A stretch of DNA of 64,000 nucleotides from Terriglobia bacterium (GCA_963698825.1 CAVOSG010000007.1:150548-214547); one strand, 5' to 3'. Shown: positions 16,170 to 63,182, counted from the first letter of the stretch. Notes: a model not told the origin generated them from the letters alone. Numbers and translations: made by a program.

Positions 16170-16236
16170 CCTGTCATCCTGAGCGCAGTATGCACTTCGC
16201 GAGGCGAAGCAATCCCTCCGCTCAGGATGGCACGGG
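16170..16236. repeat. GTCATCCTGAGCG...CGCTCAGGATGGC hairpin element (copy A of a dispersed repeat family)
   Basis: tGTCATCCTGAGCGcagtatgcaCTTCGCgaggCGAAGcaatccctcCGCTCAGGATGgca. Outer 11-bp stem, inner CTTCGC/GCGAAG stem. Confidence 0.6.
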
Positions 16237-16285
16237 TTGAGGGATGCACCTGAATCCCAAACATTCTTTTGTTCATCTAGCAGAT

Positions 16286-17329
16286 ATGAACCAGGAAGTA
16301 ACTCCCGTTTCTGTTGTCAATTATTCCGAGCCTGGGGTTCAGACCTCGGGCGGCAGCGCTCTGAACGATTCCGCTTTGCTCGATGCCTACTCGCAAGCGG
16401 TCGTAGGAGCTGCCGAGAAGCTCAGCCCTTCCGTGGTCAAGATTGATGTTGCCCAGGCGGCGAAAGGGCGGTCGGGCGAGCCCCGCGAGCGGCAAGGGGG
16501 CGGATCGGGTTTTGTCTTTACCCCCGACGGTCTGATTCTTACCAACAGTCACGTGGTGCACGATGCCACACGCATACAGGTCTCCTTTGCCGATGGCCGG
16601 CGTTTTCCCGCGAGCACCATCGGGGACGATCCCGCGACCGACCTGGCGGTGGTCCGCGTGGATATACCTATTAACGATGCGCCCAACCTGGTGGCAGCTC
16701 CCCTGGGAGATTCGCAGAAATTGCGCGTGGGACAACTGGCCATCGCGATCGGCAACCCGTATGGCTTCCAGTACACCGTGACCGCGGGCGTAGTGAGCGC
16801 GCTGGGGCGTTCGCTGCGCTCCTACTCGGGACGCATGATTGACGACGTGATCCAGACCGACGCTTCGCTCAACCCAGGAAACTCTGGAGGGCCGCTGGTG
16901 ACCTCTGACGGCCATGTGATCGGCGTGAACACGGCGACCATCATGGGTGCCCAGGGGTTGTGCTTCGCGATCGGAATCAATACCGCGAAATTTGTTGCCG
17001 GACGCCTGCTGCAGGAAGGAAGAATTCGTCGCAGCTACATCGGCGTCGAGGCCCAGACCACGCCTCTGCATCGCCGCCTGGTGCGTTTCTATAACCTTCC
17101 GCAGGAAACGGGCGTGGTGGTGATTTCTGTGACTGCAGGCAGTCCCGGCCAGAAGGCCGGATTGCGGGAGGGCGACGTGATTGTCGCCTTGGACGGCAAA
17201 CCAGTCGCCGGCGTGGACGACTTACACCGGCTGCTGACCGACGCCAGGGTGGGCGTCAGCAGTTCACTGACGGTATTGCGCTGGACGGAAAAGCTGGAGC
17301 TAGCCGTGGTGCCGGAAGAATCCGCATAG
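16286..17329 (+). CDS. htrA: HtrA/DegP-family trypsin-like serine protease with C-terminal PDZ domain
   Basis: Catalytic-region motifs GSGFVF...TNSHVV, DLAVVRVD, GNSGGPLV. PDZ motif VISVTAGSPGQKAGLREGDVIVALDGKPV. Confidence 0.8.
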   Translation: MNQEVTPVSVVNYSEPGVQTSGGSALNDSALLDAYSQAVVGAAEKLSPSVVKIDVAQAAKGRSGEPRERQGGGSGFVFTPDGLILTNSHVVHDATRIQVSFADGRRFPASTIGDDPATDLAVVRVDIPINDAPNLVAAPLGDSQKLRVGQLAIAIGNPYGFQYTVTAGVVSALGRSLRSYSGRMIDDVIQTDASLNPGNSGGPLVTSDGHVIGVNTATIMGAQGLCFAIGINTAKFVAGRLLQEGRIRRSYIGVEAQTTPLHRRLVRFYNLPQETGVVVISVTAGSPGQKAGLREGDVIVALDGKPVAGVDDLHRLLTDARVGVSSSLTVLRWTEKLELAVVPEESA

Positions 17330-17334
17330 GCGGG

Positions 17335-17424
17335 TGTGGCGCGGGCGCCCTCGCCCGCGTTCTTTCCCCCTAAATTAGGCCTGTGGAGCCTCGATCTTTC
17401 ACGCGGGCGAGGGCGCCCGCGCCA
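17335..17424. terminator. Perfect 24-bp GC-rich inverted repeat (GTGGCGCGGGCGCCCTCGCCCGCG) with 42-nt spacer, between convergent htrA and M20 peptidase genes
   Basis: 17335-17358 is the exact reverse complement of 17401-17424. Confidence 0.5.
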
Positions 17425-17435
17425 CACAACCATCT

Positions 17436-18940: not shown

Positions 18941-19229
18941 GGGCGCGAGGATAATCGGAAGGGGGGCGGGGTGTAAAGGGCGGGCGCCGGTGGCGGACAC
19001 AGCAGATTCCTCACCGGCTGAAGCCGGTTCGGAATGACACGGGATGCGGCGCTCATCTCGTTTCCTTCAAGCCGATGATCTTGAAATAACGACGGGTAAG
19101 AAAACTGCCGAGCTTGGCTCGGCTGGGCGGACGAGTGCGTCCGCCCCTACGTGGTTCGTGGTGCGCCGCCGTAGTATCATTGCAAGCTCCGGTACCCTGT
19201 GTTAGCGTCTTGAAACAGCAGAGGTTAGC

Positions 19230-20060
19230 TTGCAAGCGACAATTCCTGCCGGGCTGGATCGCAAGGAAGCTGAAGTTTACCAGCGGCTTGATCCGGAACG
19301 GCTCCCGAAACACATCGCCATCATCATGGACGGCAACGGCCGCTGGGCGCGCCGCCGCCATTTGCCGCGCATGGCCGGGCACCGCGCCGGAGTCACATCC
19401 GTGCGCTCGACGGTCGAGACCGCGGCTCGCATCGGGATTCCGTCGCTGACCCTGTATGCGTTCTCCGAAGAGAACTGGAAGAAGCGTCCCCGCAGCGAAG
19501 TGGATTTCCTGATGGGACTGCTGTGCCGCTATCTGAAGGCGGAAGTTCCGACGCTGAACAAGAACAACATCCGGCTGGAATACATCGGCCGCCAGCACGA
19601 GCTGCCGCCGGCGGTGCAGGAAAAGATGGACTGGGCGCGGGAGGCTACCGCGGGCAATACCGGCATGGTGCTGACCCTGGCGCTGAATTACAGCGCGCGC
19701 ACCGAACTGGTGGACGCCTTCCGGTCGATGGTGGATGCGGCTGCCCGCAATGGCGGCCTGGATCATCTGGCGATTGATGAGGACGCGGTTTCGCAGAACC
19801 TGTACACGCGGCACTTGCCCGATCCCGATCTGGTGATTCGCACCAGCGGCGAGATGCGGCTGAGCAATTTTCTGCTGTGGCAGCTGGCCTACGCTGAAAT
19901 CTATGTCACTCCGACTTTGTGGCCGGAATTCCGCGGCGTGCATCTGCTCGAGGGCATCGCGGAATATCAGAAGCGCGAGCGGCGCTACGGCGGATTGGCC
20001 GGCGACGCGGCGCACGCGCACGCTTCTCATCAGCACGCAGCCAAGACGGGCCGGAGCTAA
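19230..20060 (+). CDS. uppS: Undecaprenyl-diphosphate synthase (isoprenyl transferase)
   Basis: HIAIIMDGNGRWA, LTLYAFSEENWKRP, RTSGEMRLSNFLLWQLAYAE signatures. TTG start. Confidence 0.85.
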   Translation: MQATIPAGLDRKEAEVYQRLDPERLPKHIAIIMDGNGRWARRRHLPRMAGHRAGVTSVRSTVETAARIGIPSLTLYAFSEENWKKRPRSEVDFLMGLLCRYLKAEVPTLNKNNIRLEYIGRQHELPPAVQEKMDWAREATAGNTGMVLTLALNYSARTELVDAFRSMVDAAARNGGLDHLAIDEDAVSQNLYTRHLPDPDLVIRTSGEMRLSNFLLWQLAYAEIYVTPTLWPEFRGVHLLEGIAEYQKRERRYGGLAGDAAHAHASHQHAAKTGRS

Positions 20061-20066
20061 CACGGC

Positions 20067-20967
20067 TTGCAACTACTGAAACGAATCCTCACCGCAGTGC
20101 TCCTGATTCCGATCGTCTGCTGCTGGTGTTGCGCGCGCCGGTGCCGGTGCTGGCGTTGGTTACTGCGCTGGTGGCGCTGCTCGCGGTTCAGGAACTGCTC
20201 AAGATTTCCGAAGCCTACGGGATCCGTCCGTTTCACTGGCCGACCTATATTTTTGTCGGCTTGTTCTTTCTTTTCCTGGCGGTGAATCTCGGGCACGACA
20301 CTCCTTTGCTTTCTACTGCCGTGTTTGTCTGCAGCGCGGCGTTCGTGGCCGCCATCGCGCCGTTTGTCTTTCTGGTATCGGCATGAGGCGGGCCGATCTC
20401 AGCACCGCGTTTCCCGCCGCCATGATTTCGTCTTCGCGTTCGCCTATATCGCTCTGCCGCTTGGGATGTCTGGTGCAGATTCGGGAGCAGGCGCAGGCGC
20501 GTTCTTTTGCTTGTATCTGCTGTTGATGGTGTGGGCGGGAGACATCTTTGCCTATTTTGTCGGGCGTTCCCTGGGACGCCACCTGATGTCGCCGCGCATC
20601 AGTCCGAAGAAGACCTGGGAAGGCGCGCTGGCGTCGATGATCGCCAGTGTCGGAGTCGGAATGTTGCTGTACAACTATGCGCTGCCCATCAGCACGGCGC
20701 TGCTGAATGCCCATTTGATCGAGAAGAAGGATGGCTTGTTTGCCTTGGAGAAGCCGCCACTGTGGCCGATCATGCTGCTTTCCGCGGTGCATCAATGTTG
20801 CCGCGCAGCTGGGCGATCTGGTGGAATCGCTGATCAAGCGCGGAGCTGGGGTAAAGGATTCAGGGACGCTTCTTCCCGGGCACGGAGGCATGCTTGACCG
20901 GGTAGATGCCCTGCTCTTTGCCGCTCCTGTGCTGTGGTACTATGCGGCTTGGCGCGTGATGCAGTAA
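20067..20967 (+). pseudogene. cdsA: Phosphatidate cytidylyltransferase, at least 3 frameshifts
   Basis: Fragments in three frames: MQLLKRILTAVLLIPIV; LVLRAPVPVLALVTALVALLAVQELLKISEAYG; VWAGDIFAYFVGRSLGRHLMSPRISPKKTWEGA; [40 protein letters not shown]. Confidence 0.7.
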
Positions 20968-22228: not shown

Positions 22229-23569
22229 ATGTCTGGATTCTTAACGGCAGTGCTCTCCGTCGGCGTGATTCTCGGATTCATGATCCTGATTCACGAGTTC
22301 GGCCACTATGCCGTGGCCAAGCTGCTGGGCGTGCGGGTCGAGGTGTTCTCCATCGGCTTCGGCAAACGTCTGTTCGGCTTCCGCCGCGGCGAAACCGACT
22401 ACCGCATCACCGCCATCCCGCTGGGCGGCTACGTAAAGATGAGCGGCGAGAACCCGATGGACGCCCGCACCGGCGATCCTGGCGAGTTCATGTCTCACCC
22501 GCGCTGGCACCGTTTCATGATCGCCATCGCCGGTCCCGCCATGAATATCCTGCTCGCAGTCGGCCTGCTGACCGGCGTTTACATGGTGCATTATGAGTAC
22601 CCCGCGGTGTTCGACGAGCCCGCGGTCATCGGATGGGTGGTGCAAGACACTCCCGCGGCGAAAGCTGGGATTCAGATCGGCGACCGCATCGTCCGCATTG
22701 ACGGCATACAAGACCCGACCTGGGAGCAGGTGATTCTGCGCGAGGCTTTGAATCCGAACCAGCCCCTGAACGTCGCCATCGAGCGCGGCGGCCAGCTTCT
22801 AACGAAAACAATCGTGCCCGAGGCCTCCGGGCCGAATCAGATGGGCTCGGCCGGATGGGAACCGAAAGAGCCGAGTTTCCCGATCACAGACCTGGATCCC
22901 GGCATGCCGGCCGAAAAAGCCGGAATGAAGCTGGGGGATGAAATTGTCAGCGTGGACGGGCAGCCGATCGTCGGCCTCGAGGCCATGATCGAGAGCTTGA
23001 AGCGCACCAAGGACAAGCCGATCCAGATCACGGTCAGGCGCGACGGCCAGCTGCTGAACTTCACGGTGCAGCCGGTTTTGTCGGATATCAGGGGCGACCA
23101 GCGCTACCGCGTGGGTATCGGCAGCGCGCCCATGAAGGTATCGTCGTTGCCGTTTGCGGCCGCGTTTCGCCGGTCGGTGGAACAGAACAAGCAGGGCTCG
23201 CTGCTGATTCTCGAACTGGTGCAAAAAATGATTCAGCGCAAGATCTCGATCCGCTCCATCGAGGGCCCGATCGGCATCGGACGCGCCGCAGGGCAGGCAG
23301 CCAGCAAGAAGGGCTGGACGCCGCTGCTGGAACTGACTGCGGGAATCAGCCTGAATCTGGGCATCTTTAACCTGCTGCCGATTCCCATCATGGACGGCGG
23401 CGTCATTCTGCTGCTGTTCGTCGAAAGCCTGATGCGGCGGGACATCAGCCTGCGAATCAAAGAACGCATCTATCAGGCGGCCTTTGTATTCCTGGTGCTG
23501 TTCGCGGTCATGGTGATCTACAACGACGTAGCCAAGATGCTGCCCGGCGTGATGGGGAGAATGCCTTAG
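22229..23569 (+). CDS. rseP: RIP metalloprotease RseP (site-2 protease, M50) with PDZ domains
   Basis: HEFGHYAVAKLLGV zinc motif, FGFRRGETDYRITAIPLGGYVKMSGE, two PDZ segments, C-terminal LNLGIFNLLPIPIMDGG. Start at MSGFLTAVLSV, an internal Met of ORF 22088..23569. Confidence 0.85.
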   Translation: MSGFLTAVLSVGVILGFMILIHEFGHYAVAKLLGVRVEVFSIGFGKRLFGFRRGETDYRITAIPLGGYVKMSGENPMDARTGDPGEFMSHPRWHRFMIAIAGPAMNILLAVGLLTGVYMVHYEYPAVFDEPAVIGWVVQDTPAAKAGIQIGDRIVRIDGIQDPTWEQVILREALNPNQPLNVAIERGGQLLTKTIVPEASGPNQMGSAGWEPKEPSFPITDLDPGMPAEKAGMKLGDEIVSVDGQPIVGLEAMIESLKRTKDKPIQITVRRDGQLLNFTVQPVLSDIRGDQRYRVGIGSAPMKVSSLPFAAAFRRSVEQNKQGSLLILELVQKMIQRKISIRSIEGPIGIGRAAGQAASKKGWTPLLELTAGISLNLGIFNLLPIPIMDGGVILLLFVESLMRRDISLRIKERIYQAAFVFLVLFAVMVIYNDVAKMLPGVMGRMP

Positions 23570-23571
23570 AG

Positions 23572-23843
23572 CAGCTGTCAGCTATCAGCTATCAGCCTGT
23601 CAGCTCTCAGCTTCTGGCTGCTAGCTTCTGGCTTCTGGCTCCGCCAAAAAAATCTGTCATCCCGACCGGAGCGAAGCGCAGCTACGCGCAGTGGAGGGAC
23701 CTTGTGTTTCGCGCCGAGAGCAGCGGCCTCAGGGTATGCCTCTCCCGAAAGAGCCTAGGTCATCCGCCAAGACACCTGCGCTAACTCATTCATCAGCGTC
23801 CCTTAAGTACTGACAGCTGAGAGCTGACAGCCGAGAGCTCCTC
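23572..23843. repeat. Composite intergenic element between rseP and ispG: heptamer tandem arrays (TCAGCTA/TCAGCTC/TTCTGGC units) in inverted orientation at both ends, flanking a degenerate GTCATCC-family core
   Basis: Left 23572-23641 cagctgtcagctatcagctatcagcctgtcagctctcagcttctggctgctagcttctggcttctggct. Right 23808-23843 tactgacagctgagagctgacagccgagagctcc. Core tGTCATCCcgaccgGAGCGAAGCGcagc at 23654. Confidence 0.55.
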
Positions 23844-23868: not shown

Positions 23869-25106
<1,238 letters not shown>

Positions 25107-25107
<1 letters not shown>

Positions 25108-25145
25108 TGTAGGCGCGAGCGTCCTCGCTCGTGCGGCAGCGCCAC
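25107..25145. repeat. REP sequence copy 1 (gtaatgtaGGCGCGAGCGTCCTCGCTCGTGCGGCAGCG)
   Basis: Imperfect palindrome CGAGCG-TCCT-CGCTCG. Copy 2 is nearly identical in inverted orientation. Confidence 0.65.
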
Positions 25146-25236
25146 GAACCAGTGTGGCGTTTCCCGTTTCGAAACAAATTTCCTACTTTAGCTCAGGCGT
25201 TGGTCTCTCATGTTCGCCGCTTATGGTATTCGTGTC

Positions 25237-25625
25237 GGATGAACCGAGTCTACGAATATCGCCGTCATCTGCCCCACTATCAAGGCGACTACAAAGCCGT
25301 CTTCCTGACATTCTCTACTCACCACCGCTGGATATTGTCCCCAGAAGCTCGCACGTCGGTCCTTGAATCTTGCACCTGGGGAAATGGGACCTACTTCAAC
25401 CTGCATGGAGCTGTCATAATGCCGGATCACGTTCATCTTGTACTGACCCCAGCGCCCGATGGGAACAGCTTTTTTAGCGTGGCGGAAATCATGCAAGGCA
25501 TCAAAGGCGCTTCTGCCCATAAGGTCAACCGCTTGCTGAATCGGAAGGGGCAGGTGTGGCAGCGTGAGTCGTTTGATCGTGTCCTTCGACGCGAGAAAGC
25601 CTTCACGCGAAAGTTGAATACATAG
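25237..25625 (+). CDS. REP-associated tyrosine transposase (RAYT; IS200/IS605 TnpA-like HuH nuclease). Alternative start at 25131.
   Basis: MNRVYEYRRHLPHYQ...VFLTFSTHHR N-terminus and HuH motif IMPDHVHLVLTP, followed by IMQGIKGASAHKVN...QVWQRESFDRVLR. Flanked by inverted REPs. Confidence 0.75.
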
Positions 25626-25737
25626 TCCAAAATCCCGTGCGGGCTGGATTGGTCCGAACCGCGATGGAATATCGTTGGTTGTGGATTGCGAATCTGGCAA
25701 AGAGTGCGTGAGCCGGGCTAAGACTCGACACGTCCGT

Positions 25738-25783
25738 GTCGCTGCCGCACGAGCGAGGACGCTCGCGCCCACATCAACATTAC
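25738..25783. repeat. REP sequence copy 2 (inverted; ...CGCTGCCGCACGAGCGAGGACGCTCGCGCCcacatcaacattac)
   Basis: Reverse complement matches copy 1 over about 35 nt, including the gtaatgt flank. Confidence 0.65.
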
Positions 25784-30974: not shown

Positions 30975-31012
30975 TTATTAGCTATCAGCCGTCAGCTATC
31001 AGCTTTCAGCTC
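30975..31012. repeat. Heptamer tandem array (AGCTATC AGCCGTC AGCTATC AGCTTTC) immediately upstream of the pspA RBS, with no inverted partner
   Basis: ttAGCTATCAGCCGTCAGCTATCAGCTTTCAGCTcgg. Confidence 0.55.
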
Positions 31013-31200
31013 GGTGTTTTTCGTGAACTTCCTGCGCACTCTGGGCAGTTCGTTCCGCGAAAGTTGCCTCCGATCGCGACCCCGATGGCGATGCCCACTC
31101 CCAGCCACGCCGCAACGTGGCCGGCGGCCACGCCTAACGCGGTGCCAACGCCGGCGCCGAGAACAATGCCCAGAACAATTTGCATCGACGGTTTCTTCAT
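31006..31200 (-). CDS. Small glycine-zipper membrane protein (64 aa)
   Basis: MKKPSMQIVLGIVLGAGVGTALGVAAGHVAAWLGVGIAIGVAIGG with strong RBS (GAGGAAAgaaacATG). Sits between flotillin and pspA on the same strand. Confidence 0.5.
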   Translation of the reverse strand: MKKPSMQIVLGIVLGAGVGTALGVAAGHVAAWLGVGIAIGVAIGGNFRGTNCPECAGSSRKTPS

Positions 31201-35004: not shown

Positions 35005-35007
35005 TTC

Positions 35008-51836: not shown

Positions 51837-52130
51837 ACTTCGATCTCCTATCTGCGTATCAGATAATTTCGGTCTGCGAATGCGCGCGACTAGAGCTGCT
51901 TTTCGAGGGGAGAAGTTGCAGCCTATCGCGTTGACAGAAATTGTCAACGTAACTGGGTTACGGCACCAGTAACTTTAGTGCGTGGGACTAGTGTGTATCG
52001 TCCGCACGCCAGAGATTGAATGCCCGCAGAAACCGCGCGATTACAGGGGAAAGGCCGCGCCGAACGGACAAAATAAGACGAAGATCCGGCAGCGGAGGTG
52101 AAATGACTTCGGTAACAGGGCGAGGTCGGA

Positions 52131-52380
52131 CGGGTGGCCCACTCAAGCCCGGTTTTGGCTTGAGTGGGGATGTTTACGCGTCGCAAATTTTGGGGACAAA
52201 CTACACGGTCCTCCATGCCGTGAGGCTGAAGCGTTTTCGCAACCATGCGACAGGCTGTGAAGGTGACGGCGAAGGTCGAGTCGGGATAGGCGATACGAAA
52301 ACACGCGAGGCCGGCAGGAAGAATCTGTCCGGCAGTAGAACTCCACTCAAGCCAAAACTGGGCCTGAGTGGGCCACCCGT
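52131..52380. mobile_element. MITE-like element: two about 40-nt palindromic hairpins that are reverse complements of each other, flanking about 170 bp of non-coding sequence
   Basis: 52131-52170 cgggtggCCCACTCAAGCCcggttttGGCTTGAGTGGGgatg. 52341-52379 ctCCACTCAAGCCaaaactGGGCCTGAGTGGgccacccg. No intact ORF inside. Confidence 0.45.
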
Positions 52381-52427
52381 CCTCACCTTTGTCCGCATTA
52401 CTATGAGAGAGTGGAGGCTCTTCCCCA

Positions 52428-53066: not shown

Positions 53067-55322
53067 GTGGCCACTCCCACTCCAAACCGAAACAAGGAAT
53101 CGACTAGCCGCAAGAAGGTCATCATCTTGCTGACTATCGGGACCCTGATCTCGTTTGGGATCCTGCTTTCCCAATCGTCCTTCGATCTGCCCTTTCTCAA
53201 CGCGGACACACAGCAGCGTTTTCCGCTTTTGTTCTTTGCCGCGCTTACCATTGTCATATTTCTGCTGTTCGTGGCCTTGACGTTTGTTCTGGCCCGGAAT
53301 CTTCTGAAGCTTTTTGCGGAACGGCGGCTGGGCGTCCTGGGTTCGAAGTTCCGCACTCGCCTGGTGGTGGGCGGGCTGCTGCTTTCCTTCCTGCCTGTCA
53401 TCATGATGTTCTGGTTCGCCTACGGCCTGATGAACAATTCGATCGAGCGCTGGTTCTCGCGTCCCGTCGAGGAAGTGCGGGAGGACACGGCCGCCGTGGC
53501 CTCGCTGGTCAAGAAATATGCGGCGCAGAACGCCCGCGCCGAAGCCGAATCCATCGCGGCTTCGCCGGAAACCCAGCGTGCCTTTGCGGGGCACGGCTTC
53601 TCCAGCGTGATGAATGAATTCCGGCGGCACGAGACCACACTGCAGGGCGGATTCGCCCTGGCCCTGGAGGAGGGCAACGCCGAGGCCAGCATCAACGCGC
53701 CCGCGCCCTGGCCGCTGCTGAAGCCGAAAATTCCGCTGGAGCGTTTGACCTCCGAGGCCATTGTGCCCTTTAAGTGGGAGAACACTGACTACATCCTCAG
53801 TGGCGCTTCGGTGGGTGATCGCGGGCTGATCGTCGTGGCCATGCCCTTGCCGCAGAAATTCTCCGAGACGGTAAAGCAGCTGGATGCCAGCCAGCACCGC
53901 TATCTCGAACTCCGAAGCCAGCGCCGCCTGGTGCGCAGCACTTACATGGAGCTGCTGCTCCTGCTTACGGTGCTGGTGCTGTTTTCGACAACCTGGCTGG
54001 CGCTCTATCTGGCCAAGCTCGTGACCCGTCCGGTGGTGGCACTGGCCGAAGCGACCCAGGAGATTTCGCGCGGACGCCTCGACTACCGCGTGGAAGTCAG
54101 CGCGGCCGACGAAATCGGCGACCTGGTGCGCTCTTTCAACCGCATGGCGGAAGAGCTTGAAACCAGCCGCCGCCAGATCGAAGCTTCCAGCCACGACCTG
54201 AGCGCCGCCAACATCGCGCTCGAACAGCGCCGCCGGCATATTGAGACCATTCTGGAAAGCATTCCCACCGGCGTGCTTTCGCTTGATGCCAATCGCCGGA
54301 TCACGCACGTGAATCATGCCTTGATTCGCATGTTCAACCCTTCCGGCGTGGAGTCTGCGAATCAGATTGTGATCGGCGCGGCCCTGCGGGAGGTATTTCC
54401 TCCGGAGATCCTGGAAGACCTCGAGCCTTTGTTGCGGCGGGCGGACCGCATGGGCACCACCACCACGCAACTCGAAGTGGATTTGCATCGCTCCCGCTTT
54501 AACGCCGCCGCCACGGTGGCGACGCTGCAACATGGCGGCCAGGGGCTGGGCTATGTTCTGGTGTTCGAAGATCTGTCCGACCTGCTCAAGGCCCAGAAGC
54601 AAACCGCGTGGCGGGAAGTGGCGCGGCGCGTGGCGCACGAAATCAAGAACCCGTTGACGCCCATTGCGCTCTCGGCCGAACGCATCCGCCGGCATCTCGA
54701 TCGCGGTTCCCCTCCCGACGCGGCTTCGCTCGAGGTCCTGCACAGTTGCGCCGAAACTATCGGCGGGGCGGTCGAAACATTACGCACGCTGGTGGACGAG
54801 TTTTCTACTCTGGCGCGTTTTCCCACGGCGCAGCCCGCGCCGGCGAACATCAACTCCATCGTCGACAACACCCTGGCCATGTTCAACGGCCGGCTCGATG
54901 GAATTCATGTGCAGACTTTTCTGGCTCCCGACCTGCCCAAGGTCATGGCGGATTCCGAGGCCATCAAGCGCGCCCTGGCCAATCTGGTGGACAACGCCGC
55001 CGAAGCCATCGAAGGCGCGATGGTGCGCGATATTCAGATTTCCACGTCCCTGGTGGCCAGCCGGGACGCGGTCGAAATCACCGTCGCCGACACCGGCCAC
55101 GGAGTGACCCAGGAATTGAAAGAGCGCTTGTTCCTGCCTTACTTCTCCACCAAGAAACGGGGAACCGGACTTGGACTTGCGATCGTCAGCCGCATCATTG
55201 AAGACCACCGCGGCTCCATTCGTGTGGAGGAAAACCGGCCCGTAGGCACCCGCTTCGTGGTGGAGCTGCCCGTAGCCGGAGAACTGGTGGCCACCCCTGC
55301 TCCCATCCGCCAGCATGCATAA
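53067..55322 (+). CDS. ntrY: NtrY-like sensor histidine kinase (TM-HAMP-PAS-HisKA-HATPase)
   Basis: 751 aa, intact. HAMP (LAEATQEISRGRLDYRVEV), PAS, H-box HEIKNPLTPIALSAERI, G-boxes DTGHGV / GTGLGLAIV. Stop overlaps ntrX start. Confidence 0.8.
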   Translation: MATPTPNRNKESTSRKKVIILLTIGTLISFGILLSQSSFDLPFLNADTQQRFPLLFFAALTIVIFLLFVALTFVLARNLLKLFAERRLGVLGSKFRTRLVVGGLLLSFLPVIMMFWFAYGLMNNSIERWFSRPVEEVREDTAAVASLVKKYAAQNARAEAESIAASPETQRAFAGHGFSSVMNEFRRHETTLQGGFALALEEGNAEASINAPAPWPLLKPKIPLERLTSEAIVPFKWENTDYILSGASVGDRGLIVVAMPLPQKFSETVKQLDASQHRYLELRSQRRLVRSTYMELLLLLTVLVLFSTTWLALYLAKLVTRPVVALAEATQEISRGRLDYRVEVSAADEIGDLVRSFNRMAEELETSRRQIEASSHDLSAANIALEQRRRHIETILESIPTGVLSLDANRRITHVNHALIRMFNPSGVESANQIVIGAALREVFPPEILEDLEPLLRRADRMGTTTTQLEVDLHRSRFNAAATVATLQHGGQGLGYVLVFEDLSDLLKAQKQTAWREVARRVAHEIKNPLTPIALSAERIRRHLDRGSPPDAASLEVLHSCAETIGGAVETLRTLVDEFSTLARFPTAQPAPANINSIVDNTLAMFNGRLDGIHVQTFLAPDLPKVMADSEAIKRALANLVDNAAEAIEGAMVRDIQISTSLVASRDAVEITVADTGHGVTQELKERLFLPYFSTKKRGTGLGLAIVSRIIEDHRGSIRVEENRPVGTRFVVELPVAGELVATPAPIRQHA

Positions 55323-56670
55323 CATCCTCATCGTGGACGACGAGTCCGGCATCCGGCAATCGCTCAAAGGGGTGCTCGAAGACGAAGGCTACAAGGCCTC
55401 GGCTGCCGACAGCGGCGAAGCCTGCCTGGACGCCTTGCGCCGGCGGTCCTTTGACGTGGTGCTGCTCGACGTCTGGCTTCCCGGAATCGACGGCCTTGAA
55501 ACTCTGCAAAGGATTCGCGATCTCGAGAATGCTCCCGAAGTCATCATGATTTCCGGCCACGGCACCATTGAGACCGCGGTGCGCGCGACCAAACTCGGAG
55601 CTTATGACTTTCTCGAAAAGCCCCTCTCCATCGACAAGACGCTCAGCCTGATCAAGCACGCCATCGACGCCAAGCAGATGAAGCAGGAAAACCGTGAGCT
55701 CAAGCGGCAGCTCACGCCGCGCAGCGTGATCGAAGGGGAAAGCGTCCCCATGAAGGCACTGCGCCAGCAGATTCTGCTGATGGCGCCGACCAATGGCCGG
55801 GTACTGATCTACGGCGAGTCGGGAACGGGGAAGGAGCTGGTGGCCCATGCCATCCACGCTCAAAGTCTGCGAAAGGGCGAGATGTTCGTCGAGCTGAACT
55901 GTGCCGCGATTCCGGAAGATCTGATCGAGAGCGAGCTGTTCGGCCATCGCAAGGGATCGTTCCCCGCCGCCACCACCGACAAGGAAGGGAAATTCCACCG
56001 GGCTCACGGCGGCACACTTTTCCTGGACGAGATCGGCGACATGAGCCTGAAGACTCAGTCAAAAGTCTTGCGCACTCTCGACGAGCAGCGCTTTACGCCC
56101 GTGGGCAGCGATGAGCCCATCACGGTTGACGCCCGGCTGATTGCTTCCACCAACAAGGATCTGGACGAAGAAATCTCGCGCGGCAACTTTCGCGAAGATC
56201 TGTTCTACCGCCTCAATGTGATTCCCTTTTCCGTCCCACCCCTGCGCGAACGCCAGGAGGACATTCCCCTGCTGGCGCGCCACTTTCTCAAGGAATTTTC
56301 CGCTACCTACGGACGCCGGCCACGCGAAATCACCGACGATGCTATTGAGACCTTGATGCGATATTCGTGGCCGGGCAACGTTCGCGAGTTGCGCAACGTC
56401 ATCGAGCGTATCGTGATCATGAATCCGACCACCACCCGCTTCGACCGCAAGCACCTGCCCCCGCTGGTCCACCGCGATGGTACGCGCCGCTCCATTGGGT
56501 CGGAATTTTCCACCCTGCACCAGGCTCGCGCTGCCTATGAACGCGACTACATCCTGAAAAAGCTGGATGACAACCACGGCAATATCAGCCGCACCGCCGA
56601 GGTGCTCGGCCTGGAGCGAAGCCATCTCTACCGCAAAATGAAGACTTTGGGGATTGCCGTGAAGGAGTGA
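55315..56670 (+). CDS. ntrX: NtrX-like sigma-54-dependent response regulator
   Basis: REC, sigma-54 AAA+ (GESGTGKE, GSFPAA variant of GAFTGA, ESELFGH), C-terminal HTH. 451 aa, intact. Confidence 0.8.
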   Translation: MHNILIVDDESGIRQSLKGVLEDEGYKASAADSGEACLDALRRRSFDVVLLDVWLPGIDGLETLQRIRDLENAPEVIMISGHGTIETAVRATKLGAYDFLEKPLSIDKTLSLIKHAIDAKQMKQENRELKRQLTPRSVIEGESVPMKALRQQILLMAPTNGRVLIYGESGTGKELVAHAIHAQSLRKGEMFVELNCAAIPEDLIESELFGHRKGSFPAATTDKEGKFHRAHGGTLFLDEIGDMSLKTQSKVLRTLDEQRFTPVGSDEPITVDARLIASTNKDLDEEISRGNFREDLFYRLNVIPFSVPPLRERQEDIPLLARHFLKEFSATYGRRPREITDDAIETLMRYSWPGNVRELRNVIERIVIMNPTTTRFDRKHLPPLVHRDGTRRSIGSEFSTLHQARAAYERDYILKKLDDNHGNISRTAEVLGLERSHLYRKMKTLGIAVKE

Positions 56671-56714
56671 GTAGTAGCTGGGCTTTGGGCAGCGCCCGAA
56701 CCATGTTTATCTCG

Positions 56715-56826
56715 GCGTCATCCTGAGGGACTTCAGTCCCGAAGGATCTGGCGCGCAGCGTTGCGGTTCCCGCCAGCGTGTATAGACGCTCCACGCAAGA
56801 TGCTTCGCAAGCTCAGCATGACGCTG
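56715..56826. repeat. GTCATCCTGAG-family element, copy B, between convergent ntrX and anti-sigma kinase genes
   Basis: cGTCATCCTGAGggacttcagtcccGAAGGATCTggcgcgcagcg...gcttcgcaaGCTCAGCATGACGc. Terminal 12-nt inverted repeat plus inner hairpin GGGACTtcaGTCCC. Confidence 0.55.
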
Positions 56827-56863
56827 CATCGAACAAAGGCTTTTTGGGGGCCAGCAGAAAAAT

Positions 56864-57301
56864 CTACTTCTTGATCATGTGGATTTCGGTTCCGTTCTTG
56901 AGGAACTTCACTTCATCCATGAGCTGGTTAATCAGGAAGATTCCGCGGCCGTGATCGGAATAAACGCTTTCGCCGCGGAGAGGATTGGGAATCTCGCCGG
57001 GGTTGAATCCAGTGCCGGGATCACGCACCACGATCAGCATGCTCTTGTCTTCATTACAAACCACGTCGCACTCAACAATCTTTGATGGATCACCCTTCGC
57101 GCCGTGAACCACGGCGTTGGCCAGCGCCTCGGTCAGGGCCAATTCGATAGCATCGTATTTCTCCGCCTCGCAATGCACCTGTCGCACCAGATTCATCACG
57201 CTCTGGACCACCGGATCAACGGCATTCCGGTCGGCCGCAAGCGTCACTTTCAACTGCAGCTTCCCGCTGTCGAACTGGTGGATCTCGTGGTTATCGGTCA
57301 T
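56864..57301 (-). CDS. Anti-sigma regulatory factor (RsbW/SpoIIAB-like serine kinase, HATPase_c_2)
   Basis: 145 aa with ELALTEALANAVVHG...VVRDPGTGFNP...DHGRGIFLI GHKL-ATPase motifs. Confidence 0.65.
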   Translation of the reverse strand: MTDNHEIHQFDSGKLQLKVTLAADRNAVDPVVQSVMNLVRQVHCEAEKYDAIELALTEALANAVVHGAKGDPSKIVECDVVCNEDKSMLIVVRDPGTGFNPGEIPNPLRGESVYSDHGRGIFLINQLMDEVKFLKNGTEIHMIKK

Positions 57302-57402
57302 GGCCTGCTTTCATGTCGGGTGGCCGGATACGTACGATTAGATGCGCCCCCGCGTTGGGGGATTCTACAGGGATCGGTCCCTTCGAGCAAAGTGCTGACA
57401 GT

Positions 57403-58347
57403 TCATGGCTTGCTGCCGGCGGCCAACCGCTCCACCCGGCGACGCCAGTCCAGCTCCTCGACAAACTCGTGCGACTCTCGCCAGTTTTCCCGGACCTTCA
57501 CGAAGAGCTCGAGAAACACCTTCTGTTCCAGCATCTTCTCGATCTGCAAGCGGGCCGCGGTACCGATCTTTTTGAGCATCTGGCCGCCCTTGCCCACCAG
57601 GATTCCCTTCTGTCCCTCCCGTTCGCAGTAAATCACCGCCGCGATCCGCGTGACTCGCGCGCCCTCCTCGAACTGCTCAATCATGACCGTGGTGGCGTAG
57701 GGAACCTCTTCGTTCGGTCTGCACCAAAATCTGCTCGCGGATGATTTCCGCCACCATGAAACGGACAGGCTGGTCGGTGACCTGGTCTTCCGGAAAATAG
57801 CGCGGTCCTTCCGGAAGAAACTTGAGCACTTTTTCCAGGAGCACGTCGAGGCCTTCGCGTCTTCGCGCCGAGAGTGGAATGATTTCGACGAAGTCGTGCA
57901 GCTTGCGATACTCGTCCATGATGGGCAGCAGCTTTTCTTTTTCGTACCGCGGAGAAGGTCGATCTTGTTCAGCAGCAGGAACACCGGCGTCCCTGACTTC
58001 TTTGCCAGATCGAGGACGAAGTGGTCCTCCCGCGTAAACCTGCGCGTGACGTCCGCGATCAGCAGTACCAGCTCGCCGCCCACCATGGCTTCCCGAACTT
58101 CCGCCATCATTTTGCGGCCCAGGGAAGTGTCCGGCCGATGAACCCCGGGGGTATCGATGAGCACAATCTGGCCGCCAAGCCTGCCCTTCTGCCGGGGCAC
58201 GTGGATGATTCCCAGAATGCGGTTGCGTGTGGTTTGCGGCTTCGGACTGATGATGGCCAGTTTCTCTCCGACCAGCGCATTGAGGAGCGTGGACTTGCCG
58301 GCGTTGGGACGGCCCAGGATACAGACGAATCCGGAGTGAAAGGCCAT
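57403..58347 (-). pseudogene. era: GTPase Era, 2 frameshifts in the middle
   Basis: G1 GRPNAGKSTL, G3 DTPG, G4 NKID in ORF 57403..58347. Central EIIPLSARRREGLDVLLEKVLKFLPEGPRYFPEDQVTDQPVRFMVAEIIREQIL in ORF 57677..57919 (other frame). KH-domain C-terminus back in the first frame. Confidence 0.75.
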
Positions 58348-58408
58348 AGGTGGTTTCGTAGGGCCGGTATCCCGGCGGTTTTCCGGGCGGCTCTACACGG
58401 AGACCTGA

Positions 58409-59675
58409 CTATATCAGCTTCATCTGCGTCGGTTTGGCGACGGAGATTCGTACCCGCTCCACCCGGCGCTCGGTTGACTCCAGAACTTCGAAGCGCAGGC
58501 CGTCTTCCTCGATGACTTCGCCCCGGTGCGGGATGCGGCCCGCCAGTTCGCTCACCAGCCCGGCCACCGTCGCCGACTCCTTGCCCTCCGGCCGTATGCC
58601 GAACATCTCGTCCAGCCGGTCGACATCCATGTTGCCGGGCACAATGTAGGAGTTTTCGTTTTCACGGATCACTTCCAGCTTTTCGTGCTCGTCGCGAATC
58701 TCGCCGACGATTTCTTCCACCAGGTCTTCGATGGTCACCAGGCCGGCCACGCCGCCGTATTCGTCCACCACGATGGCCATGCGAATATTGTTTTTCTGCA
58801 TCTCGCGCAGCAGATCGCTGACCAGTTTGCTTTCGGGTACAAAATAGGGGTCCCGGCGCATGAGGGTATCGACCGTACGATAGTGGGCTTCGGTGTCGGG
58901 CACCTGCAGCACATCCTGGGCAAAAACGATGCCCACGATATTGTGGATGGTGCCTTCAAACACCGGTACGCGCGAAAAGGGCTTGGTACGCAGCAGTTCG
59001 ATGAATTGCTCGACCGTGGTGTTGGTGGGCACGGCCACAATTTCCGGCCGGGGCTTCATGGCCTCACGAACTGTCTTCTCGCTGAACTCCACCACCGACT
59101 GGATCAGGTCGCGATTGCTTTCATCCAGGATGCCCTCTTCCTGCCCGGCTTCGATGAGTGCGTCTACGGCTTCGGCCTGGGTTTCCGGGGTTTCGTCCGC
59201 ATGTTCCTTGGTCAGCGCGGTCACCGATTGCAGGAACCCTAACACCAGCGTGACGGGCAGCACGATGTAGATGAGGATTCGCAGCACCAGCGCACACCGG
59301 ACCAGCCATTCGCCCCGGGTCCGCAGAAAAGAAAACAAAGGGCAGAAAGCGATTGAACAGAATGATGATCAGGACAAGACTGAGCGTGGCCTGGAGAATC
59401 TCATAGAGGCCCCATCCGCGCTCACGAAACACGGCGAAGCCGACTAACAGGGCGATGGCCGCCATCATGATTTGAGTCAGCACCGCCATGGAGAGCATGG
59501 CTCGTGCCCGGCTCACTCCCAGCCTGGGCTCGACCTGCTGCTCGAAGGTTGCAATGTTGTCCTGGAACTCGCGCGAGAGAAATCTGCCGATCTCCGTGTA
59601 AACGCGATCCGCGTAGGAGACCAGCGTCAGCAGGCAAAGCAACAAGAGCAACGCAGCTGCGATGGCATAACTCAT
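58409..59675 (-). CDS. HlyC/CorC-family (CNNM) protein, YbeX/CorC-like; one frameshift near 59330
   Basis: DUF21 N-terminus in ORF 59121..59675. CBS pair plus CorC_HlyC domain in ORF 58409..59338. Confidence 0.7.
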
Positions 59676-60167
59676 CTGTTTTTTGCGGCGCGGGTGCCTC
59701 GGCCCGCGGCTTTTGCCGGCACCCTCTTCGGACCTCTTCCATTCCTCTCGATCAGGCCCTGGGGCAGACTCAACAACCGCCGTAGGTCCACTTCTTTGGT
59801 GGCCATCCTGCCCTGGTCATGTTCATGATCGTAGCCCGCCAGATGAAGCACTCCATGCAGGGCCAGGATCTTGATTTCCTGCACCGTCGAATGGCCCAAC
59901 CGGCGGGCATTCTGCCGGGCGATATCGGCCGAGATCGCGATATCGCCGGCCAACCCGTTCACCAAACCGGGCGCGGGCGGAAATGAGAGCACGTCGGTGG
60001 GCTGGTCTTTTCCGCGAAAGCGCCGGTTCAAGTGAGCGCAGTTCCGAACTGCTGGTCACCAGCACGTTGACCGTGCCCTTAAGCCTGCTGGCCTGGCTGG
60101 CCCGTGTAACAAACTTTGCCAGAGCGGTATCGCTCAATCCGGCCACGGGTTTGTGCAGGATGACCAA
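59672..60167 (-). CDS. ybeY: Endoribonuclease YbeY (rRNA maturation factor); one frameshift near 60020
   Basis: TDVLSFP...GDIAISADIA...HGVLHLAGYDHEHD zinc-binding motif in ORF 59672..60031. N-terminus MVILHKP...VNVLVTSSSELRSL in ORF 59823..60167. Confidence 0.7.
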
Positions 60168-60288
60168 GTTCTTCTTTGCGGCCGGCTTTGCGCTCTTTGC
60201 TGTGAAAAGGCTTTCCTTCCGCGACTCTCACTCCAAAAATAAACAGGAGGGCCTCATTCCGGCGCCCTCCGCTTCCATCTTACCTGCT

Positions 60289-61350
60289 CTACTCGCTGGT
60301 TTCTACTTCCGAGGAGGGGACGCTGTCGTTCCGCCGGGGCGCCATCTCGCTTCCATTGGCCTTGCCGTTCGTCCTGGATTCCGGTGAGGACATCGACTCG
60401 TCCGCCGCCTTGGCCTTGTGCTCATCGTAGGCGCGGATAATGCGCTGCACCAATTGGTGACGCACCACGTCGGTATCGTCGAAATAAGCAAAGGTCAAAC
60501 CCTCGACGTTCTTGAGGACATCGGCTGCTTCCAGTAGTCCACTGCGGCGCGCGTTGGGCAGGTCAATCTGGGTCACGTCGCCCGTGATCACGGCCTTGGA
60601 GTTGAAGCCCAGACGGGTCACGAACATCTTCATCTGTTCGGAGGTCGTGTTCTGCGCCTCGTCCAGGATCACGAAGGAATCGTTCAACGTCCGCCCGCGC
60701 ATGAACGCAATGGGCGCGATCTCGATCACACTCTTCTCCAGGTAGCGGTCAACCTTTTCGGGCTCGAGCATGTCGTACAGCGCGTCATACAGGGGGCGTA
60801 GATAGGGGTCGATCTTGTCCTGCAAAGTTCCCGGAAGAAATCCCAGGCGCTCGCCCGCTTCGACCGCGGGACGCGCGAGAATGATCCGGCTCACGCGCTT
60901 GGAAAGCAGCGCGGATATCGCCATGGCCACAGCCAGGTAGGTCTTGCCTGTTCCGGCCGGCCCGATGCCGAAGACCATGTCGTGACTCTCGATGGCTTCG
61001 ATATAGCGCCGCTGGTTCACGCTCTTGGGCTGCACGGTGCGGCGTCCGAAGGAGCGCTGGCGTCCGGCTTCGGCCAAGCCGCGCAGCGTAGCCTTGGGGT
61101 CGGCCAGCAGAACTCGCAGCATGCTGCCCAGGTCGCCATTGTTGAAGGTGTAGCCGGAGCGCTGCAGGTGGTCGTAGTCGGCAAAGACCTGCTCCGCCCG
61201 GGCCACATCTCGGGCCGCCCCTTCCAGGGCGATGGAGTCAGATCGTAGATCGATGTTGATATTCAGGCCGTCTTCCAGCAGACGCACATTCTCGTCGCGC
61301 GTGCCGAACAGGGTCTCGATGTTGGGACTGATTTCAATGCTCTTCTTCAT
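60289..61350 (-). CDS. phoH: PhoH-family ATPase (YbeZ-like)
   Basis: GPAGTGKTYLAVAMA Walker A, DEAQNTT, KH-like N-terminal domain. Start at MKKSIEIS, an internal Met of ORF 60289..61416. Confidence 0.85.
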   Translation of the reverse strand: MKKSIEISPNIETLFGTRDENVRLLEDGLNINIDLRSDSIALEGAARDVARAEQVFADYDHLQRSGYTFNNGDLGSMLRVLLADPKATLRGLAEAGRQRSFGRRTVQPKSVNQRRYIEAIESHDMVFGIGPAGTGKTYLAVAMAISALLSKRVSRIILARPAVEAGERLGFLPGTLQDKIDPYLRPLYDALYDMLEPEKVDRYLEKSVIEIAPIAFMRGRTLNDSFVILDEAQNTTSEQMKMFVTRLGFNSKAVITGDVTQIDLPNARRSGLLEAADVLKNVEGLTFAYFDDTDVVRHQLVQRIIRAYDEHKAKAADESMSSPESRTNGKANGSEMAPRRNDSVPSSEVETSE

Positions 61351-61680
61351 TCGGTATTTGGCGCTTCCTCCGGCGCATTGGATGCAGAGTTGCCTGTGCA
61401 TGGAGCGCAAAAACACTCCTGCCTGGGCGCGGACAAACGATGCTCATGTCTGGAGGTGGAACCAGCCGAGGATGCTCGCCCCGAAGTGCAAGCAACTGCC
61501 ATTGAGTTAAGGGTACCCCTGCTCGTTGACGGGAGTCAATGGCGGCGAAAGTAGGCCCATTACTGTTGGTATGCGAGGGAAACCTCCGGCCCATACGACC
61601 GGGGGTCAATGACTCAGGCTCACCCCAGAGGCCCCCGAAATTGCGGCCCACCCCCACTCCGGATATCATGCAGGCCAACC

Positions 61681-62974
61681 ATGAGACTCACATACTCGTT
61701 CCTGCTTGTCCTGTTGGCTGCTTTTGCCGGGGCGCAAACTTCAACCCTCCCCGCGGAAGTGCAAACCGTCTACCCCGACGCCCACGCCTTGTACCTTGAT
61801 CTCCATCAGAATCCCGAACTCTCATCCCACGAAACGCAAACCGCCGCGAAGCTGGCCGGCCGCCTGCGTGACCTCGGCTACTCCGTCACCGAACATGTAG
61901 GTGGAACCGGCGTGGTGGCGATCATGAAGAACGGCGCCGGGCCCACGGTGATGCTTCGCACCGAGCTCGACGGGCTTCCGGTCGAGGAAAAGACCGGCCT
62001 GCCCTATGCCAGCAAGGTCCATGCCAAGGACGATTCGGGTCGCGAAGTCGGAGTGATGCACGCCTGCGGACATGACGTCCACATGGCGTCGCTCGTCGGG
62101 ACGGCTGCCATCATGGCGCACAGCAAGAACACCTGGCACGGAACTCTCATCCTGATCGGCCAGCCCGCCGAGGAAACCATCTCCGGCGCGAAACGGATGA
62201 TCGAAGACGGCCTCATGACCCGCTTTCCAAAGCCCGACGTAGCCGTGGCGTTACACGTCGGCAACTGGGGTCCATGCCGGAAAGGTCGGGGTTGGGCCCG
62301 GATACCGCTTTTCCAACGCCGATTCCCTGCGCATCACGATCTATGGCAAAGGCGGACACGGCTCGATGCCCAATAGCACCGTCGACCCGATCGTGATTGC
62401 GGCCCGTACCATTGTTGCTTTGCAGACCATCGTTTCACGGGAGGTCAAGCCGGGAGAAGTTGCCGTGGTCACTGTGGGATACATTCAAGCGGGCACCAAA
62501 AATAATATTATTCCCGATCAGGCCGAGCTCGGCCTCACCGTCCGCAGCTATAAACCGGAAGTTCGCAAGCAGGTGCTCGCGGCCATCGAGCGGATTACCA
62601 AAGCAGAAGCGAATGCCGCCGGCGCAACCCGTGAACCCAAAATCGAGCACTTCGAGGGCACGGATGCTGTCTACAACGATCCCGCGCTGGCTCAGCGGAT
62701 GCAGGGCGTGCTGGAATCGGCGCTGGGCAAAGACAACGTGGTGGTCGAGGAGCCGGGCATGGCGTCGGAAGATTTTTCCTACTTCACCGCCCAGGGCGTG
62801 CCCTCGTTCTACTTCAGCCTGGGAGGAGCGGAGCCAGGAAAATTAGCGGAGGCAAAAGCGGCTGGAACAAATTTGCCTTCCAATCATTCGGCGCTGTTCG
62901 CTCCCGACGTAGATCCCGCGCTGCACACCGGAATCGCGGCTGAGGTTGCAGTGCTGCGGAATCTGTTGAAGTGA
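61681..62974 (+). CDS. M20D-family amidohydrolase (aminoacylase / hippurate-hydrolase-like) with signal peptide; 1-2 frameshifts near 62270-62340
   Basis: MRLTYSFLLVLLAAFAGAQ signal, MHACGHDVHMA metal-binding motif (ORF 61609..62376). C-terminal ...ITVGYIQAGTKNNIIPDQAEL...SEDFSYF (ORF 62366..62974). Confidence 0.65.
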
Positions 62975-62985
62975 TCGACCCCTCC

Positions 62986-63182
62986 AGGTTGTCATCCTGA
63001 GCAAGGAGGCCTCTTCGCTGTGCGAAGAGGCAGACGCGCCGAAGGACCCCTATAAGTGAACCGACCTGTCGCTGTTGAGGGTTGCTCGTTCGCCGCCCGG
63101 CACAGTTGCCGCCTATAGGGGTCCTTCGCCTCCGCGGCTGCTTCGCGAAGCGAAGCAGCTACTCCGCTCAGGTTGTCATCCC
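62986..63182. repeat. GTCATCCTGAG-family element, copy C (about 200 bp, highly structured) between convergent amidohydrolase and AAA ATPase genes
   Basis: aggttGTCATCCTGAGC...GCTCAGGttGTCATCC termini. Internal hairpins CCTCTTCGCtgtGCGAAGAGG and CTGCTTCGCGAAGCGAAGCAG. Long-range IR GGACCCCTATA / TATAGGGGTCC. Confidence 0.55.

Follow-up and report, generated by a model that had tools for sequence, protein, structure and literature searches.

The 64,000-nt stretch of DNA analysed here, from a Terriglobia bacterium (GCA_963698825.1 CAVOSG010000007.1:150548-214547; hereafter the window), contains dispersed copies of a short tagged hairpin. These copies are probably a non-coding, non-autonomous, hairpin-forming repeat of the repetitive extragenic palindromic (REP) type, and they fit the superfamily of CGTC/TGTC-tagged REPs. 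The fold of each unit is under selection, because its basal stem covaries, and whole doublets of units have been dispersed to new loci. A preliminary description of the window had reported three main copies, at 16170-16236, 56715-56826 and 62986-63182 (copies 1, 2 and 3 below), and each of them was present at that position. It had also placed every copy between genes, in agreement with the gene context found here.

The tagged hairpin and the covariation of its stem

The repeated entity is one tagged hairpin. The copies had been described before as elements with hairpin termini, but GAAGGATCT is the 3' half of the stem of the GTCATCCTGAG unit and not a second terminus. Read 5' to 3', the unit consists of an unpaired YGTC tag, a 5-bp stem (A-YYYY / RRRR-T), GA opposite GA, a closing G-C pair, a variable distal stem-loop and a C-tail; it can also be written ATCCTGAG...CGAAGGAT. 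In an alignment of 69 short units (A3), GTC, A-T (A9 and T10), GA, GA, A-T (A28 and T29) and C were invariant. The base before GTC was mostly T and otherwise C, and the window units likewise begin with TGTC or CGTC. The 3' tail was the invariant C, a pyrimidine (T in at least 70% of the units) and then variable bases, and not CCA. The first two stem pairs are A-T and then T-A; in the loci that were not selected for the motif, AU was found in 31 of 33 units and UA in 34 of 34.

The distal part of the hairpin is far less constrained. IMG/VR was scanned with the pattern GTCATCCTGAGN{3,30}CGAAGGATC, and at least 120 stretches matched. Among the matches listed, the insert ranged from 5 nt (CGNAG, giving GCGNAGC) to 30 nt. 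GCGNAGC is the shortest distal form; it was found with all four bases at N and was present in 59 of the 99 short-form matches. GCGNAGC is not required, because many units replace it with an ordinary longer stem. The conserved part of the unit is the tag and the mismatched stem base, and the tip is free to vary.

The frequency of the motif was determined in the window and in a set of loci chosen for another reason. This unselected set comprised 80 soil-metagenome loci, which were fetched for a relative of the HtrA-like protease (window 16244-17329) and not for the motif; together with the window and L001, an independent assembly 92% identical to window 54189-64000, it amounts to 899 kb. With one mismatch at most, GTCATCCTGAG occurred 7 times in the window against 0.99 expected, and none of 100 shuffles reached 7. 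In the 899 kb, base composition predicts 0.44 occurrences of the 11-mer and 0.036 of the 13-mer; the observed counts were 19 and 11. The enrichment in the window and in unselected relatives thus places the 13-mer far above random expectation, the level at which the preliminary description would have abandoned its dispersed repeat, and the repeat is real.

The basal stem changes in a coordinated manner. At the four variable stem positions (5'/3' arm) of 1.2 Mb of loci, the combinations were TCCT/AGGA 194, TTCT/AGAA 63, TTCC/GGAA 18, TGCT/AGCA 17, TCCC/GGGA 16 and TTTC/GAAA 11, with non-complementary combinations at no more than 2 each; these loci had been selected by the TCCT/AGGA pattern, which inflates the TCCT/AGGA class and not the others. 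A covariance model, which the preliminary description had called for, was then available from the 69 short units (R1). It gave 34 matches at E <= 0.01 in the 899 kb of unselected loci, approximately one per 26 kb. In the alignment of these matches, which was fitted to R1 and is therefore favoured in its pairing by the model, 98.6% of cells pair and 34 cells are changed on both sides. This pairing level was reached by none of 500 shuffles, and no slid register came near it.

The same conclusion is reached from a subfamily of doublets, that is, pairs of neighbouring units, to which copy 2 belongs. The left unit of this subfamily is constant (ATCCT/AGGAT). The right unit is ATGCT/AGCAT in the window, ATCCC/GGGAT in L312 and ATCCT/AGGAT in L255, so that compensatory changes separate the three. 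These changes keep the pairing within the unit and break the pairing between units, which indicates selection on the hairpin of each unit.

Doublets, turnover and host range

In the viral loci, 336 units formed 124 neighbouring pairs, 68 of which had their tags outward, and 137 of the 336 units were solo. The spacers of the outward-tag doublets measured 10-100 nt, mostly 17-43 nt, with modes at 18, 24 and 41 nt. A TCCT unit was combined with a TTCT unit in 40 of the 68, so that mixed stem types were common. Both doublets of the window are of the tags-outward type. The doublets are 80-190 nt long, have inverted ends, encode no protein and show presence or absence at orthologous sites.

Orthologous sites were compared between the window and related loci. 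At the site between the hemerythrin-domain gene and the HtrA-like protease gene, where the window has copy 1, a composite doublet of about 190 nt was found in L243, L249 and L250. The window holds a 61-nt version, the right part of which aligns with L243 and L250. A vestige of about 20 nt is left in L248, the site is empty in L251, L252, L254 and L256, and L244-L247 carry an unrelated repeat there. L001 keeps copy 2, with units that are better conserved than the spacer, and it is without window 61590-63177, a segment of 1.6 kb with the split M20 gene and copy 3. In place of this segment, L001 has about 60 nt with a small GC hairpin (L001 7372-7433), and homology resumes at CATCCCC. Over its whole length, the copy 2 doublet can be aligned with doublets at two non-orthologous loci, located at 2.9 kb in L312 and at 7.6 kb in L255. 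One doublet subfamily is therefore present at three non-orthologous loci, and whole doublets have been dispersed. The distinct family of REP or miniature inverted-repeat transposable element (MITE) type suggested by the preliminary description is thus upheld by units that covary, form inverted doublets, and come and go at orthologous sites.

Two further observations concern sites of this kind. Some 2 kb upstream of the protease gene, at an intergenic site that is orthologous among these loci, L288, L280 and L273 carry a tagged doublet, and L278 and L311 have a plain GGCTGGC...GCCAGCC hairpin with a T-rich tail. Tandem arrays of half-sites adjoin complete units in some loci, with four CTGTCATCCGTGAGTCCCCCC in L174 and three GCGCTCAGGATGACATAGGGTGT in L188, and also in L130 and L131; the hosts of these arrays are Lachnospiraceae, Syntrophomonadaceae and Bacteroidales bins.

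The unit is spread over a wide range of hosts. The exact 27-mer TGTCATCCTGAGCGAAGCGAAGGATCT was found in at least 120 stretches of GTDB contigs (one genome per species), and we estimate the number expected by chance to be far below one. By record title, its carriers belong to at least ten phyla, and Acidobacteriota are the most frequent among the matches listed. It is present in Bacillota (Lachnospiraceae, Oscillospiraceae, Syntrophomonadaceae and Desulfosporosinus), in Bacteroidota, including the isolates Mucilaginibacter sp. SG564 and Paracnuella aquatica N24, and in Nitrospirota, including a complete Candidatus Manganitrophus genome. Gemmatimonadota, Verrucomicrobiota, Planctomycetota, Chloroflexota, Bdellovibrionales and Alpha-, Beta-, Gamma- and Deltaproteobacteria-type lineages were also among the carriers. 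The outward-tag doublet architecture occurs in all named hosts, and the base composition of the flanks fits the named host. The 27-mer was also found in IMG/VR contigs, some of them with terminase genes, and 25/27 matches were found in five plasmids of Planktothrix, Gloeothece and Phocaeicola. Records of cultured phages contained essentially none, with one marginal match. Full-text literature searches for the sequence and its variants returned unrelated primers only.

Relation to known repeats and possible explanations

Two superfamilies of REPs, one tagged by GTAG and the other by CGTC, have been distinguished (Di Nocera, De Gregorio and Rocco 2013, PMC3733652). In the CGTC class the tag is often TGTC, stem positions 1-2 are almost always complementary A-T, and a short unpaired tail has the consensus CCA. 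Dimers with the tags outside predominate, with spacers of 20-100 bp whose ends are sometimes complementary, and heterodimers are common. The stems are 8-9 bp and the loops 4-5 nt; a repeat was discarded if its stem had more than one mismatch. These REPs lie mostly downstream of open reading frames (ORFs), were found in five phyla and "apparently lack a dedicated transposase"; Neisseria dRS3 (CGTC-1) and Rickettsia RPE-4 and RPE-6 are members (PMC3733652). The units described here have in common with this class the tag, the A-T stem start, outward dimers, heterodimers and complementary spacer ends, as well as a location mostly downstream of ORFs, occurrence in several phyla and, in the loci covered, no dedicated transposase. 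They differ in having a 5-bp stem, a GA/GA mismatch and a distal part that ranges from a mini-hairpin of 2 bp and 3 nt to more than 40 nt, and the short tail that they do have is C followed by T or C instead of CCA. If 8 positions and a 5-nt loop are counted, the unit has the same length (21 nt) as CGTC REPs, with two mismatches, and would be discarded by the published pipeline. The GA/GA form may therefore not have been catalogued, because repeats with more than one stem mismatch were dropped. Acidobacteriota, Bacillota, Chloroflexota, Gemmatimonadota, Nitrospirota and phage contigs are not among the published hosts of the CGTC class.

Other known systems share part of these features. GTAG REPs and REPINs and the bacterial interspersed mosaic elements (BIMEs) of E. 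coli are likewise tagged imperfect palindromes, form inverted doublets able to fold into a larger hairpin, are intergenic and mostly 3' of genes, and show strain turnover. GTAG REP families are usually lineage-specific. The present units differ from the GTAG REP system, with its REP-associated tyrosine transposase (RAYT), in that the tag is YGTC and not GTAG, no RAYT is flanked by the units, and the same sequence occurs in many phyla. Like MITEs, the doublets have inverted ends, but a target-site duplication was not seen consistently, no parent insertion sequence sharing these ends was found, and units are also met singly. The shortest units carry exactly the GCGNAGC tip of the d(GCGNAGC) mini-hairpin (Hirao; PMC13037366), which is itself a structure and not a repeat family. 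d(GCGNAGC) is extremely stable as DNA, with a Tm of 76.5 C for d(GCGAAGC) against 39 C for r(GCGAAAGC), and phages and plasmids have it in their single-strand initiation signals and hairpin promoters (PMC13037366). Several other candidates were rejected. A hammerhead-like core (GUC triplet, CUGA, GA...GAA) was dismissed by inspection, with CUGANGA unmet and no helix I; a kink-turn lacks its 3-nt bulge beside the tandem G.A; and an integron attC site is opposed by the missing GTTRRRY core and by convergent doublets in place of same-direction cassette arrays.

If the copies are a REP-type repeat, the selected form would be a single-stranded DNA hairpin, which could be exposed in replication or extruded from supercoiled DNA. 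The tag and stem base may be read by an enzyme supplied in trans, as RAYT/IS200-type HUH enzymes read a hairpin with its 5' guide tetranucleotide, and this enzyme would copy or move the doublet. The feature by which IS200/IS605 TnpA and RAYTs recognise their substrates is a conserved tetranucleotide on the 5' side of the hairpin foot. We infer single-stranded DNA as the working form from the stability of GCGNAGC as DNA, the HUH-like tag at the 5' foot and the occurrence of units in both gene orientations. Four of the five sites in the window lie beyond the 3' end of a gene, and the fifth, the unit at 19004, lies between divergent genes. Because most copies land just beyond gene ends, they would also put a hairpin into the 3' untranslated RNA, and the cell may tolerate it or benefit mildly from it.

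An enzyme of this kind was searched for in the neighbourhood of the units. The ORFs near units in about 2 Mb of pattern-selected loci yielded no dominant or transposase-like neighbour family when clustered, and no RAYT homologue was found in these loci. The clusters from viral loci were syntenic phage genes, and two of the ten tested were terminases. Those from genome loci were small, the largest being 13 ORFs from 11 of 120 loci, and none was identified. Across all fetched loci (about 2.9 Mb, consisting of loci and not of whole genomes), RAYT homologues occurred only at the RAYT locus of the window and its orthologues and never beside units. The second RAYT elsewhere that the preliminary description had considered did not appear within this range.

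Several points weigh against a mobile REP of the CGTC class. No mobilising enzyme was found. A check for target duplication gave a direct repeat only around copy 3 (13 nt), and between filled and empty orthologous sites the divergence was too great for one to be delimited. Presence or absence could partly reflect deletion, and no transposition event was seen directly. The dimensions of stem and loop differ from those of the published CGTC families (8-9 perfect pairs, loop 4-5), and the units were compared with CGTC-1 to CGTC-4 by the published description of these four families. Single mismatches were about equally G.T (21) and A.C (15), which leaves no mark of a working strand apart from GA/GA. 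By nearest-neighbour DNA energies, for which the crediting of sheared G.A pairs or GNA triloops is uncertain, the two strands were almost equal and the short unit was at shuffle level (z = -0.8). Individual host assignments can be wrong, because most genome matches are metagenome bins with possibly mis-binned contigs; a general artefact is made unlikely by the isolates and by the base composition of the flanks.

The preliminary description had also proposed that the elements could be transcribed as structured RNA, and an RNA hairpin could be the primary form. A stem-loop at the 3' end would then stop transcription or block 3' exonucleases, the unit would have spread by its usefulness, and doublets would serve both convergent transcripts. 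We consider this unlikely, but it keeps real weight because of the 3' placement of the units and because L278 and L311 have, at the site orthologous to a doublet, a plain GC hairpin that resembles a terminator in being followed by a T-rich tail. Both doublets of the window lie between convergent genes, and on either transcript the sense unit comes first. By RNA energy, the sense strand is the more stable one by about 1.5 kcal/mol, and REPs have been noted downstream of ORFs (PMC3733652). The orientation of solo units, 55 sense against 33 antisense, leans weakly the same way; this count uses crude ORF calls, in which shadow ORFs can be picked, and it still leaves more than one third of the solo units antisense. 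One such "gene" in the window is a 339-aa ORF at 19053-20072 (-) without a Pfam match, an apparent shadow of uppS (+, 19230-20060), and long shadow ORFs of this type make length-based gene calls unreliable in GC-rich window DNA. An RNA role is opposed by the absence of a T-run after any unit. The terminator scan reported no unit, and terminator-like matches were at shuffle level in both regions. The unit at 19004-19039 lies in a divergent promoter region. The GCGNAGC core, reported to be far stabler as DNA, is weak as RNA, and no Rfam 15 family matched at gathering score, with only generic hairpin matches to miRNA precursor models at E <= 10. An RNA hairpin also leaves unexplained the invariant unpaired GTC tag and the identical 27-mer across phyla.

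The units could instead be recombination targets, that is, attachment or insertion sites for a site-specific recombinase, IS110/Piv-type elements or phages, with local gain and loss of genes there. Such a use has been reported for Neisseria dRS3, a CGTC-1 REP. The 1.6-kb segment with M20 and copy 3 that is absent in L001 has its junction in a TGTCATCC-like box, a 13-nt repeat brackets copy 3, half-site tandem arrays stand beside units in L174, L188, L130 and L131, and units occur in phage contigs. We nevertheless regard this explanation as improbable. It relies on a single supporting indel, no integrase or insertion sequence adjoins the units in the window, nor does one do so regularly in the 2 Mb of loci, and it leaves unexplained the hundreds of near-identical copies and the doublets with their spacers at unrelated loci. 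Chance similarity, low complexity or an assembly artefact can be practically dismissed. The split ispG, M20 and RAYT genes do suggest indel errors in the assembly, but the enrichment is strong, the stem covaries, the element is conserved in L001 as an independent assembly against a 92% identical background, and isolate genomes and plasmids carry the same unit.

With a CGTC-type REP as the preferred reading, the window would add a clear member of this type in a soil lineage related to Acidobacteriota. The type has been known since 2013 as a class "without a transposase", and further hosts are added to it here. Intergenic DNA, the ends of mRNAs and genome rearrangement are all shaped by repeats of the REP type. 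It is conceivable, but in our opinion doubtful, that the GA/GA tagged hairpin is one single-stranded DNA signal across at least ten phyla and phages, kept by selection on its own fold and served by a non-RAYT enzyme in trans or by a core replication or repair activity. If so, orphan REPs would mark an undescribed mobilisation or DNA-processing system with a very broad host range. The 27-mer and the covariance model together provide a precise probe for phylogenetic profiling toward the missing enzyme. In annotation, the units explain hypervariable intergenic gaps, and units of this kind explain many spurious short ORFs.

Sites in the window and neighbouring repeats

R1 recognised three canonical units in the window, all with E < 1e-5, at 18998-19043 (-), 56712-56755 (+) and 56792-56827 (-). 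Gene identities were taken from Pfam. Copy 2 lies between convergent genes for a sigma-54 response regulator and a histidine-kinase-like ATPase (HATPase_c_2); it starts 46 nt past the stop of the sigma-54 activator (56670), and its right unit is 41 nt beyond the HATPase_c_2 stop (ORF end 56864). The left unit (56716-56749, +) reads CGTC-ATCCT-GA-GGGACttcaGTCCC-GA-AGGAT-CT (R1 27.5 bits, E = 5e-6). It is kept in L001 and L002, and an identical unit is present at the non-orthologous loci in L312 and L255. The ends of the spacer (56750-56797) are mutually complementary (GGCGCGCAGCG ... CGCTCCACGC), and the spacer was delimited by alignment with the L312 and L255 doublets. The right unit (56798-56823, -) reads CGTC-ATGCT-GA-G-cttg-C-GA-AGCAT-CT (R1 27.2 bits, E = 6e-6).

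The best R1 match in the window is the canonical solo unit at 19004-19039 (-), TGTC-ATTCC-GA-ACCGGCttcaGCCGGT-GA-GGAAT-CT (28.1 bits, E = 3e-6), which is absent from the preliminary description. Its predicted fold agrees with the model. It lies between an M20 peptidase gene (-, start 18746) and uppS (+, start 19230), which are divergent. L254 has the same unit, and in L244 the 3' half of the unit can be recognised at the orthologous site.

Copy 1 (16172-16232), recognised from its sequence, is an internally deleted composite doublet. It is made up of a left box TGTCATCCTGAGCG (16172-16185), an inner hairpin CTTCGCgagGCGAAG (16195-16209) and a right box CGCTCAGGATGGCA (16219-16232). It forms a single long hairpin on either strand (z = -6.4) and has no single-unit score with R1. 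The hemerythrin-domain gene (stop 16155) and the HtrA-like protease gene (start 16244) on its two sides run in the same direction, both on the + strand. No exact match to the HtrA-like protein was recorded in assemblies.

Copy 3 (62990-63177) is a composite doublet of about 190 nt, made of two long-form units that are turned toward each other and separated by a central arm. The left unit (62990-63047, +), TGTC-ATCCT-GA-GC...[GCCTCTTCGCtgtGCGAAGAGGC]...GC-C-GA-AGGAC, was recognised from sequence and fold and has the architecture of the composites in L243, L249 and L250. In the central arm (63048-63118), CCCTATA...TATAGG closes a long hairpin between the units. The right unit (63119-63177, -), GACAACCTGAGCGGAG...GCGAAGGAC, is a long form with a degenerate tag and stem. 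The whole folds into a three-way junction on both strands (z = -8.9 and -8.4), and its inverted repeat (I1) has 68-nt arms that are 72% complementary. A 13-nt direct repeat CAGGTTGTCATCC at 62985-62997 (+) and again at 63169-63181 brackets the copy; it may be a target duplication or a duplication of the end. Copy 3 lies between the convergent split M20 peptidase gene and an AAA+ gene, starting 16 nt past the stop of the former (62974) and abutting the 3' end of the latter (63191).

Two degenerate versions had been listed in addition, at 23650-23800 and about 29583. Within the former span, 23654-23700 (+) is probably a long-form solo unit, TGTC-ATCCC-GA-C...G-GA-GGGAC-C, and the rest of the span is not part of it. 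The A.C at its first stem position recurs in the "...GGAC" variant (23 cases), but R1 misses the unit and its fold is at shuffle level (z = 0.7). It lies between rseP (stop 23569) and ispG (start 23869), which run in the same direction, and inside the loop of a large inverted repeat of heptads. The latter version is withdrawn: at 29586 there is only a 5' box with a mismatch, without a 3' half, and the fold is no better than shuffles. A match with one mismatch at 39559 falls within a long ORF, and chance probably accounts for it.

The local RAYT (25131-25625, Y1_Tnp) is flanked by repeats of another type, GGCGCGAGCGTCCTCGCTCGTGC, at 25101-25137 and 25737-25774. The statement of the preliminary description that the tagged family is not that of the local RAYT therefore stands, and a link to this or any RAYT was rejected because of the different flanking repeats and the absence of a RAYT beside units in the fetched loci. 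The RAYT gene (+, to about 25700) is frameshifted, with the catalytic-tyrosine motif EYIVQNPVRAGLV in the next frame just downstream. Its region (about 25108-25780) aligns in L243 and not in L253, L255 or L246. The ispG/GcpE gene (23869-24965) and the M20 peptidase gene (61609-62974) are each split into two overlapping ORFs in different frames. ispG is normally essential. The splits in ispG, M20 and RAYT suggest indel errors in the assembly rather than three pseudogenes.

Further repeats of the RAYT type are located at 17334-17427, 11154-11190 and 33804-33841. Among them is a perfect inverted repeat of 27 nt whose spacer measures 40 nt (I6); this repeat gave a spurious match to a plant miRNA model (E = 8e-5). 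A GTAG-tagged palindrome, GTAGCGCCGCCATCCCGGCGGC..., at 12494-12604 and 58352-58383 is probably a third REP family, and it adjoins a RES toxin / Xre antitoxin pair (12642-13588). Intergenic hairpins with arms of tandem heptads (CAGCTNT, GTCGTCA, CCTCGGA, TTCTGGT and CTTTGCG) form families distinct from the tagged REP. They were found at 23565-23612 with 23810-23840, the pair that encloses the 23654 unit, and at 30979-31023, 41435-41465, 44332-44456, 42554-42641, 47552-47615, 834-916, 8541-8657, 3565-3675 and 60186-60208. In the N-terminal part of an ORF with a TrmO domain, 52128-52167 and 52343-52382 form a 40-nt inverted repeat that is 95% complementary, with its arms 175 nt apart.

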